In this document: piece by piece, positions 23,010 to 33,054 of the stretch
Layout: each line of letters starts with the position of its first letter
Position numbering within the stretch: the stretch's first letter is position 1
Source: a virus
Lineage: Duplodnaviria > Heunggongvirae > Uroviricota > Caudoviricetes
DNA length: 36,921 nt
Reading direction: 5' to 3' (one strand)
Virus record (IMG/VR): IMGVR_UViG_2531839667_000014
Coordinates: 1 to 36,921 of that record
The notes under the pieces: model-generated
What the model was told of the DNA's origin: nothing
The model's database searches: none
What the model saw: only the letters and a program-made list of their open reading frames with translations
Translations under genes and position numbers: made by a program

Positions 23010-23084
<75 letters not shown>

Positions 23085-23087
23085 ATA

Positions 23088-23163
<76 letters not shown>

Positions 23164-25712: not shown

Positions 25713-25991
25713 TTACCTCCAGATCCGTTGCTGGAATGTGCGGGACGGACGCGGTGGGCGTTCGGAATAAGGGAGTCTGACGTAGATTATCCAGAGACGA
25801 TAATCGAGGCTGAGGGCTTTCCTAAACTCATACCCACGTCTGCGGTAGTTATGAATCAGCCATTCGGCCTGTTCTTCAGTGCAGGGGTCATGCTGGTACC
25901 AGTCATATTTGAATGCGTGAGGGCGCCGCCCGTGCCCGCTGGCAAAGACGGCTGAATTATCAGAATTGTTAATTTTCTTGTAATGCACCAC
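25713..25991 (-). CDS. hypothetical prophage protein
   Basis: 92-aa ORF abutting the DUF968 gene on the same strand; no family recognised. Confidence 0.4.
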   Translation of the reverse strand: MVHYKKINNSDNSAVFASGHGRRPHAFKYDWYQHDPCTEEQAEWLIHNYRRRGYEFRKALSLDYRLWIIYVRLPYSERPPRPSRTFQQRIWR

Positions 25992-26057
25992 TACTGTCCT
26001 CGTAATGGTGCGACAGACGCCAGTTGTTCAGGCTGGCTTTGACTACGGCATTATAAT

Positions 26058-26252
26058 CTAGTCTTTCTTAATGCTGAAGTGACTGACCGAATCCACATGC
26101 GATTCTTTGGTGATCAGAATAACATCGGATGGCAATGGCATTACGATAAATTCACCATTCTCAAGAACTATTACTTCATAATTACCAGGTACAGAAAGCG
26201 CAGCAATTAATTCCTTATCGTTCATAACCAAAATCCCGTGAACTTTAAACAC
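26058..26252 (-). CDS. hypothetical protein
   Basis: 64-aa ORF; the annotated start is GTG with no spacing to a GGGGAG stretch, so the true start may be the ATG at 26225. Confidence 0.35.
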   Translation of the reverse strand: MFKVHGILVMNDKELIAALSVPGNYEVIVLENGEFIVMPLPSDVILITKESHVDSVSHFSIKKD

Positions 26253-26562: not shown

Positions 26563-26718
26563 TTACTCCTCAGGTTCGTAAGCTGTGAAGACAGCGACCT
26601 CCGTCTGTCCGGTTCGGATTCGTACCTCGCAGAGGTCTTTCCTCGTTACCAGTGCCGTCACAATGACGGTTAAACAGATGACGATCAGGGCGATTAGCAT
26701 CGCCTTTTGCTGCTTCAT
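26563..26718 (-). CDS. hok: Hok-family type I toxin (HokD/RelF-like)
   Basis: 51 aa MKQQKAMLIALIVICLTVIVTALVTRKDLCEVRIRTGQTEVAVFTAYEPEE; single TM helix; AAGGAG RBS; the track ORF is extended in frame by 19 codons. Confidence 0.9.
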   Translation of the reverse strand: MKQQKAMLIALIVICLTVIVTALVTRKDLCEVRIRTGQTEVAVFTAYEPEE

Positions 26719-27007
26719 AGCCTGCTTCTCCTTGCCTTTCGGCACGTAAGAGGCTAACCTACGTGTGCAAGTCATAGATATGGCCTCAGATTAATGTTAA
26801 GCGTCTTGCAGGACGCGTAATGTTAACTGGGGCTTTCTCTGCCTGCCTTACAGTGGCATGCCCGAGGCAGACAGCCTCAAGCACCCGCAGCAATTCTACT
26901 TAACTATCTTTCTCCCGCAAATCGTTTTTATCCCCAGCGGCAAATCGAATACACAACCAGTGCTACCGCCATTGCAATTCCTACTGTTGTGAATGCCTCA
27001 GGCCAGG

Positions 27008-30233: not shown

Positions 30234-30659
30234 TTAGTGCATCACCAGGGCATTTCCCGCCGGACCACCACGATTCATCTGATTGAAACCAGCGATCGCC
30301 ACTGCGACAAAATCATCAGCGTCTCTCACCAGTCGTTCCCGCGTCTCCACCAGCTCCCGAAAATAGGCTGAACTGTGGCTGCGCATTCGGGCCACCAGCA
30401 GAGGTGGCATTGCCTTTTCGATCGCTGGTAACAACGCCTGAATTTTTTTAACCGCATCAGGGGTGTCTTTCTCCACCCAGCGGAAAATTTTCTGAGTATT
30501 GCGAGCCAGGGCTTCCGGATGGCTGTCGTCATACAGTTCCGGAAACGTCATACCCAACTCAAAATAAGCCTGGGTTATTCCAGCTGCCGGAACTTTTTCG
30601 CCATAAGTACGCGCCCAGGCATTCATCGCCATGCGGATGTGTTCATGCTTGATTTTCAT
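30234..30659 (-). CDS. YdaT-like / CII-position regulator (putative)
   Basis: 141 aa starting MKIKHEHI...; second gene of the rightward early operon after the cro-like gene; family call from memory and weak. Confidence 0.4.
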   Translation of the reverse strand: MKIKHEHIRMAMNAWARTYGEKVPAAGITQAYFELGMTFPELYDDSHPEALARNTQKIFRWVEKDTPDAVKKIQALLPAIEKAMPPLLVARMRSHSSAYFRELVETRERLVRDADDFVAVAIAGFNQMNRGGPAGNALVMH

Positions 30660-30918
30660 GAATCAACTCCGGTGTATTTGGTGTGTTAGCCTTATCTCCA
30701 ACAGGCAACCCGTCTGTTGGATTCGGGTATAAATCTGGTCGCAATTCATGAGGAGTCACCCCAGTTGCAATATAAATTTGACGAACCCGTTCTCCTGTCG
30801 GCACTCGACCTTTGTATTCATTTGCCCATTTGTGTATTTGAGACGGCCAAGCCCCTATTGCTCGCCCTAGCGGACGAATACCACCAGCAATCTTTATTGC
30901 TTTGTCCAATGCTGTCAT
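30643..30918 (-). CDS. Cro-like (YdaS/DicC-type) HTH regulator
   Basis: 91 aa; HTH-like segment near the N-terminus; GGAGG RBS 5 nt upstream; divergent from the repressor gene. Confidence 0.65.
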   Translation of the reverse strand: MTALDKAIKIAGGIRPLGRAIGAWPSQIHKWANEYKGRVPTGERVRQIYIATGVTPHELRPDLYPNPTDGLPVGDKANTPNTPELIHENQA

Positions 30919-30946: not shown

Positions 30947-31015
30947 ATTGTTCACTTAAAACGAACATAAGTCAACAACCTGAGGAATTGTTAGTGTTCA
31001 CTGAACGGTTATAAT
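30947..31015. promoter_or_regulatory. immunity switch: divergent promoters with operator repeats
   Basis: Minus-strand promoter TTGACT-N17-AACAAT (30975..30947) overlapped by TGTTC-N9-GAACA (30949..30967); plus-strand promoter TTGTTA-N16-TATAAT (30988..31015) with the palindrome GTTCAcTGAAC (30996..31006) in its spacer; TATAAT ends 6 nt before the repressor ATG. Confidence 0.6.
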
Positions 31016-31021
31016 TGCCAA

Positions 31022-31411
31022 ATGGACATGAGAAAAAAGCAATACGACACCCCGCTGGCAGAAAGGTTAGATACGATCTCGCAACAGCATCATTTAAGCG
31101 GTTCAGATTTAGCGCGTATCGCTGGTGTAGGTCGTTCATCAGTCAACGCATGGAAAAAAAGAGGGACAATCAGTAAAGATTCCGCAGCTAAAATTGCAGA
31201 AGCTACAAACGTTTCCCTTTCTTGGCTACTGACAGGAAAAGAAGATACAAATAGAGAGGCGCTTGATGATGATGAGAAAGCCCTGCTTGATGTTTACAGA
31301 AACCTGCCACCCGTAGAACGTAGAAATATGCTGGCAGCTTTTCAAATGCGACTTCAAAAACTGACCGAATTTTACTCAGAATACGTTGACCCAATCACAC
31401 GACAAAAATAA
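31022..31411 (+). CDS. CI/DicA-like repressor (HTH-XRE type, no peptidase domain)
   Basis: 129 aa with HTH ...LSGSDLARIAGVGRSSVNAWKKRG...; divergent from the cro-like gene; followed by a terminator and the dicB-operon promoter. Confidence 0.7.
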   Translation: MDMRKKQYDTPLAERLDTISQQHHLSGSDLARIAGVGRSSVNAWKKRGTISKDSAAKIAEATNVSLSWLLTGKEDTNREALDDDEKALLDVYRNLPPVERRNMLAAFQMRLQKLTEFYSEYVDPITRQK

Positions 31412-31432: not shown

Positions 31433-31455
31433 ACCGCCGTAAGGCGGTTTTTTTT
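31433..31455 (+). terminator. rho-independent terminator after the repressor gene
   Basis: ACCGCC-gtaa-GGCGGT followed by TTTTTTTT. Confidence 0.7.
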
Positions 31456-31466
31456 GCCTCTCGCGC

Positions 31467-31495
31467 ATTCATAGTGTTGACATTTGTTCACCTAA
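31467..31495 (+). promoter_or_regulatory. promoter of the dicB-type operon with overlapping operator
   Basis: TTGACA (31467..31472), 17-nt spacer, AACAAT (31490..31495); operator TGTTC-N9-GAACA at 31475..31493 has the same geometry as the site in the cro-like promoter. Confidence 0.6.
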
Positions 31496-31578
31496 AGAGA
31501 ACAATGTATTCCATCAAAGTACAACGGTGCGACAGGTCTTAGTTCCGCTACCCCGGCGTTAAGGGGAAATGAGGTCAC

Positions 31579-31734
31579 ATGGATACTATCAATCTTGGCA
31601 ACAACGAATCTCTGGCATACGGTGTGTTTCCCAACCAGGACGGTACGTTCACCGCTATGACGTATACCAAAAGCAAAACGTTTAAAACCGAATCTGGCGC
31701 ACGTCGCTGGCTGGAAAGAAACTCAGGTGAGTGA
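31579..31734 (+). CDS. ydfA: small protein, YdfA-equivalent (51 aa)
   Basis: Manually found ORF MDTINLGNNESLAYGVFPNQDGTFTAMTYTKSKTFKTESGARRWLERNSGE; length and operon position match K-12 ydfA as recalled; symbol assigned by synteny. Confidence 0.55.
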   Translation: MDTINLGNNESLAYGVFPNQDGTFTAMTYTKSKTFKTESGARRWLERNSGE

Positions 31735-31735
31735 T

Positions 31736-31864
31736 ATGGATTTCGACACAATCATGGAAAAGGCTTACGAAGAATACTTCGAAGGCCTTGCCGAAGGCGA
31801 AGAAGCTCTCAGCTTCAGTGAGTTTAAACAGGCGCTTTCCTGCTCGGAAAAATCTAACGGCTGA
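31736..31864 (+). CDS. ydfB: small acidic protein, YdfB-equivalent (42 aa)
   Basis: Manually found ORF MDFDTIMEKAYEEYFEGLAEGEEALSFSEFKQALSCSEKSNG starting 1 nt after the ydfA stop; symbol by size and synteny. Confidence 0.5.
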   Translation: MDFDTIMEKAYEEYFEGLAEGEEALSFSEFKQALSCSEKSNG

Positions 31865-31893
31865 TAAGCGAAGCAGCACCGCGAGGAATCAGT

Positions 31894-32112
31894 ATGCAGA
31901 AACGAGAACCCGTCATCATCGCGCCAGACTATACCGATGATGAACTTTATGAGTGGATGCACCAGAAAATTAAGGCAGCGCAGGACCTGAAATGGGCCAA
32001 TGAAGCCAGGGCTAAGCAGGCCGAAAATCTGTCTGCTCTGGAAAAAGATATTACCAATCTGGAAAAAGCAGCGGCATTAAGTATCGCCAGAATGATTACA
32101 TACCCGCGTTAA
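31894..32112 (+). CDS. ydfC: small protein, YdfC-equivalent (72 aa)
   Basis: 72-aa ORF with a coiled-coil-like sequence; third gene of the operon; symbol by size and synteny. Confidence 0.55.
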   Translation: MQKREPVIIAPDYTDDELYEWMHQKIKAAQDLKWANEARAKQAENLSALEKDITNLEKAAALSIARMITYPR

Positions 32113-32452
32113 TAGCTAAACAACGAAGCTAAGGTTGGTAATTAAGGAGTTCTCCACGGGTGAGGTGGAGTGCGTGCGCCGGACACGGGTGAACATCCGG
32201 CACTGACAGTTTACTGAAAGGATATTTCCCTGAAAAGTCAGACCATAACGCGAAAGCGCACGGCGAGGTAGCTGGTTCATAGATAGCCTGTCGTTAAATT
32301 TTCGTCGACCGTGCGCTTCCGGTTGTGGCAATCCGCGAAATGGCGCGGCGGTAAGTATGGCGGGGTTATTCCTTCCCCGTTGAGGACACCGGGTTGTCAG
32401 GTTGACCATACGCTTAAGTGACAACCCCGCTGCAACGCCCTCTGTTATCAAT

Positions 32453-32508
32453 TTTCTGGTGACGTTTGGCGGCATCTGTTTGCCCATGAACTGATGTCCG
32501 CCCTTTTT
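32453..32508 (+). ncRNA. dicF: DicF-like small RNA (cell-division inhibitor sRNA)
   Basis: TTTCTGGTGACGTTTGGCGG...GATGTCCGCCCTTTTT: the 5' and terminator-hairpin ends match K-12 DicF as I recall it; sits between ydfC and dicB; exact ends uncertain. Confidence 0.6.
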
Positions 32509-32677
32509 AAAGTGAATTTTGTGATGCGGTGAATGCGGCTAAGCGCACGCGGAACAGTTAAAGCTAAAAACAGTGTTATGGGTGGATTCTCTGTATCCGG
32601 CGTTAATTGTTAACTGGTTAACGTCACCTGGAGGCACCAGGCACCGCATCACAAAATTCATTGTTGAGGACGCGATA

Positions 32678-32866
32678 ATGGAAACGTTATTACCAAACGT
32701 TAATACGTCTGAAGGTTGTTTTGAAATTGGTGTCACTATCAGCAATCAGATATTTACTGAAGATGCCATTAATAAAAGAAAACACGAACAGGAACTGCTA
32801 AATAAAATATGCATTGTTTCGATGCTGGCCCGTTTACGTCTGATGCAAACAGGATGCAGGCAATGA
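32678..32866 (+). CDS. dicB: cell division inhibitor DicB
   Basis: 62 aa METLLPNVNTSEGCFEIGVTISNQIFTEDAINKRKHEQELLNKICIVSMLARLRLMQTGCRQ, near-identical to K-12 DicB from memory; GAGGA RBS; the track ORF is over-extended upstream. Confidence 0.9.
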   Translation: METLLPNVNTSEGCFEIGVTISNQIFTEDAINKRKHEQELLNKICIVSMLARLRLMQTGCRQ

Positions 32867-33054
32867 ATACGGCATTTGTACTCGTTCTGACTGTTTTTTT
32901 TGTTTCTGGTGAACCGATTGATCTTGTTATTGACATACATGACTCAATGGAAGAATGCATGACTGCCGCGGCAGAGCAAAAAATTCCCGGGAACTGTTAT
33001 CCTGTCGACAAAATTATTCGCATGAACAATAACGAAATCCCGGCAGGCCTTTAA
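32863..33054 (+). CDS. ydfD: YdfD-like small membrane protein
   Basis: 63 aa MNTAFVLVLTVFFVSGEPIDLVIDIHDSMEECMTAAAEQKIPGNCYPVDKIIRMNNNEIPAGL; ATGA overlap with the dicB stop. Confidence 0.8.
   Translation: MNTAFVLVLTVFFVSGEPIDLVIDIHDSMEECMTAAAEQKIPGNCYPVDKIIRMNNNEIPAGL

Follow-up and report, generated by a model that had tools for sequence, protein, structure and literature searches.

DicB and DicF, the products of the dicB operon, inhibit cell division and also change the function of phage receptors. The moment at which a lysogen filaments is therefore set by whatever silences them. The best described case is that of the Qin prophage of Escherichia coli K-12, whose repressor DicA binds the operator Oc, with single base changes in Oc abolishing the binding (PMC3441716). 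Deletion of dicA raises the activity of the promoter dicBp 22-fold (PMC10448788), and the same paper, citing Bejar et al. 1988, places operators at both dicCp and dicBp. A second system of this kind is the immunity region of prophage CP-933P. Here, the repressor PaaR2 and the Cro-like protein YdaS both footprint the intergenic region and each represses the left promoter PL933P approximately 100-fold; PL933P has its -35 and -10 sequences and its operators in common with PR933P (PMC8630535).

The DNA analyzed in this study (IMG/VR record IMGVR_UViG_2531839667_000014; 36,921 bp, referred to below as the window) is identical to positions 2514591-2551511 of the genome of E. coli DCE7 (accession no. 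NZ_CP090611.1). This 36.9-kb window covers most of a lambdoid prophage that appears to be complete, not cryptic. It contains genes for tail and head proteins, terminase, lysis, a Q-type antiterminator, the hokD/sok system and replication, followed by the immunity region (30.2-31.6 kb), the dicB operon, an exonuclease gene and an integrase gene. In the E. coli record matching the window, yccA is located directly past the integrase gene. Several other features were recorded: an IS200C transposase gene (2098-2556) between the tail-fibre and lom genes, a tRNA-Gly/tRNA-Thr pair (23010-23163) between the Q antiterminator and lysis genes, and the hokD/sok toxin-antitoxin locus (26563-26886), whose sok component scores 100 bits.

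The genes of the immunity region and of the adjacent operon are arranged in the order ydaT, cro (YdaS-type), a gene for a 129-aa CI/DicA-like repressor, a terminator, and a promoter that reads into ydfA-ydfB-ydfC-DicF-dicB. The first-pass annotation had named the transcription unit downstream of this promoter the dicB operon, and the label is correct, since its members were identified using Pfam, Rfam and the RefSeq annotation. The operon body (31579-33054, + strand) consists of (i) ydfA, encoding a DUF1391 protein (31579-31734), (ii) ydfB (31736-31864), (iii) ydfC (31894-32112), (iv) the small RNA gene DicF (32454-32503), (v) dicB (32678-32866; Pfam DicB, 4e-39) and (vi) a ydfD-like DUF1482 gene (32863-33054), all on the + strand; the exonuclease gene and int lie further downstream. 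The DicF copy scores 43.5 bits (E = 9.5e-8), which is below the Rfam gathering score of 48, so that a default Rfam scan misses it. A match resembling STnc100 (32501-32710; 39 bits against a gathering score of 47) covers the sequence just upstream of dicB together with the dicB start.

The repressor gene occupies positions 31022-31411 of the + strand if translation is counted from the first ATG. NCBI PGAP/RefSeq places the start at the second ATG, at 31028; two relatives are annotated from the first one. The only Pfam matches of the protein are to helix-turn-helix families (Phage_CI_repr, 1.8e-12, and HTH_3, 2.6e-8), both within its N-terminal domain, and no S24 peptidase domain was found by this search. 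Since the repressor does not contain this autocleavage domain, induction by RecA-stimulated self-cleavage is impossible. The protein is aligned over its full length by the NCBIfam DicA model NF007257, with a score of 38.7 bits, which is below the cut-off of 101 and places it outside the DicA subfamily. BLASTP comparison with DicA of K-12 gave 26% aa sequence identity (5e-7), and the match includes the C-terminal segment. The nearest solved structure, and the only structure match, is the N-terminal domain of phage 186 CI (2fjr, E = 0.004). Homology to PaaR2 was also considered and rejected, none being detectable in a BLASTP comparison with the ORF in the PaaR2 position of locus L043 (E = 0.88).

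An intrinsic terminator of the repressor gene is located at 31433-31455 on the + strand. It is comprised of a 6-bp stem with five G-C pairs (31433-31448) and a run of seven T residues (31449-31455), and it is kept in relatives, in which the loop changes. At the other end of the gene, TATAAT (31010-31015) ends 6 nt before the ATG at 31022 and no Shine-Dalgarno sequence is found there. This arrangement is also kept in relatives. The repressor mRNA may therefore be leaderless, which is plausible on the basis of this spacing and has precedents in the paaR2 and cI mRNAs (PMC8630535).

On the opposite strand, the Cro-like gene (30643-30918, - strand) encodes a 91-aa protein with a YdaS-type helix-turn-helix (Pfam YdaS_toxin PF15943, 40 bits against a cut-off of 30), which matches phrog_35, 'transcriptional repressor', at 1e-24. 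It is followed by a gene of the YdaT family (30234-30659, - strand; Pfam YdaT_toxin PF06254, 39.1 bits against a cut-off of 21), the CII analogue of this region; a CII-like role of YdaT has been described (PMC9986795). Only the C-terminal 50 aa of the Cro-like protein, encoded by a segment that overlaps the start of ydaT, are 55% identical to YdaS of the CP-933P type. The left edge of the immunity cassette is located inside cro, the N-terminal, DNA-binding half being type-specific and the C-terminal 50 aa common between types. The right edge of the cassette lies just past the -10 sequence of the left promoter.

This left, PL-like promoter of the dicB operon is located at 31477-31505 on the + strand. 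The first-pass annotation had read the promoter correctly as TTGACA-N17-AACAAT, with coordinates (31467-31495) that are too low by exactly 10. The -35 sequence, TTGACA (31477-31482), is separated by the 17-nt spacer from the -10 sequence, AACAAT (31500-31505), and the promoter scored 10/12 in a scan with the sigma-70 consensus. The -35 sequence had been called near-consensus and placed 12 nt after the repressor terminator; it is in fact the exact consensus, and it starts 21 nt after the end of the T-run at 31455. Read along the promoter, the sequence is TTGACA-TT-TGTTC-ACCTAAAGA-GAACAAT. It includes the inverted repeat TGTTC-ACCTAAAGA-GAACA (31485-31503), designated OL, a 19-bp palindrome that occupies the spacer and overlaps the -10 sequence. 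The centres of its half-sites are 14 bp apart, i.e. more than one helical turn. A reading of this palindrome as an RNA hairpin was rejected: the site precedes the predicted start of the PL transcript and follows the repressor terminator, and a hairpin of 5 bp closing a 9-nt loop would be weak.

The 103-bp intergenic region between the repressor gene and cro carries two back-to-back promoters. The PR-like promoter of the cro/ydaT early operon (30947-30975, - strand) consists of TTGACT (30975-30970), a 17-nt spacer and AACAAT (30952-30947). It scored 9/12 in the scan, and it sits 29 nt upstream of the cro ATG (30918), which is preceded by AGGAGG. Along the promoter it reads TTGACT-TA-TGTTC-GTTTTAAGT-GAACAAT. 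This promoter contains the second exact copy of the palindrome, OR1 (30949-30967; TGTTC-ACTTAAAAC-GAACA). The register reported in the first-pass annotation was confirmed to the nucleotide, as both promoters conform to TTGAC[A/T]-N2-TGTTC-N9-GAACAAT. The two copies, in divergent promoters on either side of the repressor gene, are the only exact occurrences of TGTTC-N9-GAACA in the 36.9 kb, against 0.06 expected, and none of 100 shuffled sequences reached two.

The repressor is preceded by a PRM-like promoter (30988-31015, + strand; TTGTTA at 30988-30993, a 16-nt spacer and TATAAT at 31010-31015; 10/12 in the scan), the spacer of which contains the half-site GTGTTCACTG (30994-31003). With this half-site, the heptamer TGTTCAC occurs at all three sites, as had been proposed, at positions 30949, 30995 and 31485 of the + strand. 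Because the three copies share the same genomic orientation, the heptamer forms the -35-proximal half of the palindrome at PL and the -10-proximal half at PR. In the PRM-like promoter its register is nearly the same, one base after the -35 sequence compared with two, and the spacer is one base shorter. There are 10 copies of TGTTCAC in the whole window (5.6 expected), a number reached by 5 of 100 shuffles, and this enrichment is not significant. The weight of the heptamer therefore rests on its clustering, with three copies within 540 bp of regulatory DNA, and on its conservation, all three being invariant in 21 distinct relatives.

A third operator with two mismatches (TGTTA-N9-GAACG, 30989-31007) was considered at the PRM-like promoter and rejected, its outer bases being lost in two relatives, the Lelliottia locus L008 and locus L116. 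The inner 10-mer GTGTTCACTG is invariant in the 21 relatives, including L008 and L116, whose repressors are 78% and 81% identical to that of the window; the conserved element is therefore the 7-mer named in the first-pass annotation. Sites with at most two mismatches to the palindrome number 28 in the window (17.9 expected), and those other than the two exact copies and 30989-31007 are scattered, mostly inside annotated genes. Three tandem operators per side are thus absent: there is one full site and a conserved half-site on the cro side, and one full site at PL. With one full site per promoter instead of three, the sequence gives no indication of cooperative switch-like behaviour.

We consider it probable (approximately 0.8) that the palindrome at 31485-31503 is the OL operator of the prophage immunity region and is bound by the adjacent 129-aa repressor. 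The repressor would bind OL as a dimer, with one helix-turn-helix per TGTTC half-site. Since OL occupies the spacer and overlaps the -10 sequence of PL, bound repressor would exclude RNA polymerase. Occupation of OL would keep ydfABC-DicF-dicB, together with the downstream exonuclease and integrase genes, silent in the lysogen, and the same repressor would bind OR1 and shut off cro-ydaT, replication and the lytic genes. The half-site in the promoter of the repressor itself may be a weak site, serving autoregulation or Cro. Binding of the repressor, its dimer stoichiometry and repression at OL and OR1 are what we infer from the organization of the locus, and looping between the two full sites, across 536 bp, would be a further step of the same kind. 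The claim of the first-pass annotation that a single repressor governs the cro-side operon as well as the dicB operon is supported by the register of the palindromes, by the half-site footprint and by the co-occurrence of motif and repressor, as described below.

The footprint was obtained from five E. coli loci, a prophage of Lelliottia nimipressuralis and 27 IMG/VR contigs, which together gave 21 distinct sequences of the TGTTC type with repressors 78-100% identical to that of the window. At both sites, TGTTC(A) and (A)GAACA show no or almost no variation, and it is the central spacer bases and the flanks that vary. At PL, the -35 bases TTGAC and the -10 sequence are invariant, the half-sites of OL are nearly invariant, spacer positions 31491-31497 are variable and the DNA upstream of the -35 sequence is poorly conserved. 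At OR1, positions 30947-30955 and 30963-30966 are invariant, and 30956-30957 and 30961-30962 are variable. The mean column entropy is 0.055 for the half-sites (20 columns), compared with 0.47 in the two 9-nt spacers and 0.38 in the remaining non-coding columns. Of 20,000 random column draws, none equalled the half-sites in conservation, and the value for the 10 half-site columns outside both promoter hexamers is p ~0.003, statistics that overstate independence, since these relatives are closely related. Such constancy of the arms around a drifting centre would be expected of a dimer-binding site.

The same alignment bears on the view that PL and PR are copies of one promoter and that the inverted repeat is an unbound passenger of this paralogy. 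The right half-site is embedded in the -10 sequence (GAACAAT contains AACAAT) and could be conserved solely for its role in the promoter; in the extended -35 sequence (TGTTGAC), TGTTG is similar to a half-site, and PL and PR agree at 19 of 29 positions. The TGTTC in the spacer has no role in recognition by sigma-70, yet it is nearly invariant, and the adjacent spacer bases vary freely. Moreover, the spacers of PL and PR differ at seven of nine positions, so they are not the product of a recent duplication. Other immunity types keep the position of the promoter and swap the palindrome for one matching their own cro side, as detailed in the comparison of ydfA-linked loci below. A paralogous origin without operator function is, on this evidence, very improbable, and operator function for OL remains the preferred reading.

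Of 5426 complete E. coli genomes, 82 (~1.5%), O157:H7 strains among them, contain the cassette, always as a single copy and with 89-100% DNA identity. When the immunity region was used as the query in a blastn search (distant mode), the GenBank phage collection gave no match, so none of the isolated phages in it carries the cassette. Among 2.9 million viral contigs of IMG/VR, exact matches to TTGACN3TGTTCN9GAACAAT were found in 31. A repressor and a cro of the window type are encoded beside the match in 25 of these, 20 of which contain both copies, ~530 bp apart. The remaining six contigs have single matches without the repressor, and the one examined lies inside a coding region of an unrelated phage.

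This distribution is relevant to the idea that the palindrome is recognized by a host transcription factor or by the regulator of another prophage. The DCE7 genome has four places that match a query extending from ydaT to ydfC; this immunity type is single per genome in all 82 E. coli genomes that carry it. The palindrome also moves with the repressor into Lelliottia, in addition to its location beside a repressor of the window type in most of the matching contigs. The palindrome fits none of the consensus sequences of LexA (CTGT-N8-ACAG), CRP (TGTGA-N6-TCACA) and FNR (TTGAT-N4-ATCAA). Taken together, recognition by a host factor or by another prophage seems extremely unlikely, and we retain the adjacent repressor as the probable ligand.

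The Lelliottia locus (L008), with its repressor 78% identical, keeps both palindromes as well as the TGTTCAC half-site, and its left promoter reads TTGACA-TA-TGTTC-ACTTTAAAA-GAACAAT. Neither ydfA nor dicB was found within 2.5 kb at this locus, and the first downstream gene differs. Similarly, loci L104, L105 and L114 contain the same cassette and leader joined to different first genes. As judged from these comparisons, the putative operator is part of the repressor cassette and not of the dicB operon.

The converse arrangement was observed in 80 viral loci chosen only for the presence of YdfA. Upstream of ydfA these carry ~16 other immunity types, and the type of the window is not among them. 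The types with a short leader have an inverted repeat of their own between the -35 and -10 sequences, at the same position, which matches their own cro-side region: a TTAG-type repeat in DicA relatives, CTAC-N5-GTAG in locus L013 and AAAAC-N6-GTTTT in locus L030. In 14 types lying upstream of ydfA, the region that follows the repressor was compared with the divergent intergenic region; the best 19-nt match had a mean of 15.7 in cognate pairs, compared with 13.4 in non-cognate pairs, and the observed trace was reached by none of 100,000 permutations. In loci L043, L047 and L051 (IMG/VR), which have immunity of the CP-933P type, a gene for a ParE-family toxin lies directly upstream of the PL region.

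The 5′ leader of the operon (31509-31578, + strand), between PL and ydfA, was found in alignments to be conserved across differing immunity types. It is kept with unrelated cassettes of the K-12 Qin, L013, L015, L030, L044 and L070 types. Many ydfA-linked immunity types have an extra conserved leader segment of ~95 nt (ATGCAGGGCAATACTTCGAG...), which is absent from the window. The first hairpin of the leader is G(T/C)AC-AACG-GTGC, in place of which K-12 has ACACC-GCAC-GGTGT and L030 has CAACGA-N6-TCGTTG. These replacements look compensatory, with weak support from RNAalifold (-5 kcal/mol and two covarying pairs for the leader structure). An Rfam scan of the leader identified no family; antitermination and translational control are possible roles.

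A sister cassette is present in loci L117 and L118 (about 2380-2500 and 2890-2990), whose repressors are 72-73% identical to that of the window. OR1 of these loci is TGTTA-N9-TAACA, a symmetric one-base change in both half-sites. Their PL site, TATTC-N9-AAATA, is a poorer and more degenerate match; identity of OL and OR is therefore common, but not absolute. The repressors differ from that of the window by G37S, which changes the residue that opens the predicted recognition helix, and by K45Y, Q21E, Q22R and G27N. We tentatively suggest, as something rather less likely than its opposite, that the two cassettes constitute a natural pair differing in DNA-binding specificity; if this were true, one base of the operator and one residue of the repressor would make the window and L117/L118 types heteroimmune. 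It is a separate and equally doubtful proposal that OL and OR are looped by way of the DicA-like C-terminal segment of the repressor. Such a loop, if it exists, would explain how one site per promoter suffices for tight repression of a toxic operon.

The repressor is not the only candidate ligand, as the YdaS-type Cro-like regulator might be the protein that mainly acts at the operators, in which case the dicB operon would be shut down late, instead of being silenced in the lysogen. The DNA-binding half of Cro is a part of the same swapped cassette, and cro co-varies with the operators as the repressor does: its product is 88% identical to that of the window in the Lelliottia locus and 58% identical in L117/L118, in which the operators differ. 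In CP-933P, the region footprinted by PaaR2 is also footprinted by YdaS, which represses PL933P (PMC8630535). In K-12, deletion of dicA derepresses dicBp, but deletion of dicC does not (PMC10448788). Furthermore, DicB and DicF are toxic on overexpression, and both would be made from an unrepressed PL, with its exact -35 sequence and its score of 10/12. Action of Cro at these sites is in any case compatible with control by the repressor, since both proteins share operators in every studied lambdoid switch, and by analogy with lambda Cro and CP-933P YdaS, the Cro-like protein probably uses the same operator sites as the repressor. That Cro, and not the repressor, is the principal regulator of the dicB operon is improbable. 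In the lysogen, silencing of the operon is more reasonably ascribed to the 129-aa repressor.

The arrangement described here follows the usual OL/OR scheme of a lambdoid immunity region, which has been demonstrated before with DicA acting at dicBp and PaaR2 at PL933P. The only new element would be its specificity, namely an uncharacterised DicA-like repressor of 129 aa and an operator of the form TGTTC-N9-GAACA. By these comparisons, the dicB operon is passive cargo, for which the upstream immunity cassette, of whichever type, supplies its own promoter-embedded operator. The locus would add a putative repressor-operator pair to the heteroimmune DicA-like switches, and the understanding of such switches is unchanged by it.

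One close resemblance is to Qin of K-12, which has the same order of cro analogue, repressor, promoter and ydfA-ydfB-ydfC-dicF-dicB-ydfD. Its dicBp consists of TTGACC-N17-TAATCT followed after 6 nt by CATCAA; PL of the window is homologous to it position for position, and the leader of the window also begins with CATCAA. An operator-like inverted repeat is located between the -35 and -10 sequences of dicBp and matches the cro-side Oc (PMC3441716; PMC10448788). The repressor of the window, like DicA, is short, has no RecA-cleavage domain and possesses the DicA-like C-terminal segment. The differences are as follows: (i) the operator of the Oc type is TTGTTAGTCATAACTAACAA, compared with TGTTC-N9-GAACA in the window, (ii) Cro of the window is of the YdaS type and is followed by ydaT, with E = 0.08 against DicC in BLASTP, and (iii) the window has no detected homologue of Rem and its prophage looks complete, whereas Qin is cryptic. 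A tblastn search of the window for this Rem-type antirepressor gave a best E of 0.49, inside other genes and off the syntenic position. The position of rem in Qin, between the DUF968 gene and hokD (25713-26225 in the window), is occupied by two ORFs, phrog_1212 and phrog_34610; a 55-aa ORF of this interval gave no BLASTP alignment with Rem.

With CP-933P, the window shares a YdaS-type Cro and YdaT beside a short CI-like repressor. PL and PR of the window likewise have the same -10 sequence, with -35 sequences one base apart, and TATAAT stands close before the ATG of the repressor gene. CP-933P differs in having paaA2-parE2 toxin-antitoxin genes downstream of the repressor, where the window has the terminator directly after the gene, and in its operators, which are 18-bp palindromes based on GTTTAGTAA, three per side, in contrast to one full site per promoter in the window (PMC8630535).

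The phage 186 CI family, Phage_CI_repr, provides the best Pfam match for the helix-turn-helix of the window repressor. This match is confined to the N-terminal domain; the C-terminal oligomerisation domain of 186 CI is absent, and the genetic context is lambdoid, not P2/186-like. In comparison with lambda itself, the three tandem sites of OR1-3 and OL1-3 are replaced by a single full operator per promoter and one half-site, the operator has 19 bp compared with 17 bp, and the 129-aa repressor is devoid of the S24 domain. The locus nevertheless has in common with lambda the divergent repressor and cro genes, the same operator at PL and PR overlapping promoter elements, and a cassette that is exchangeable as a unit.
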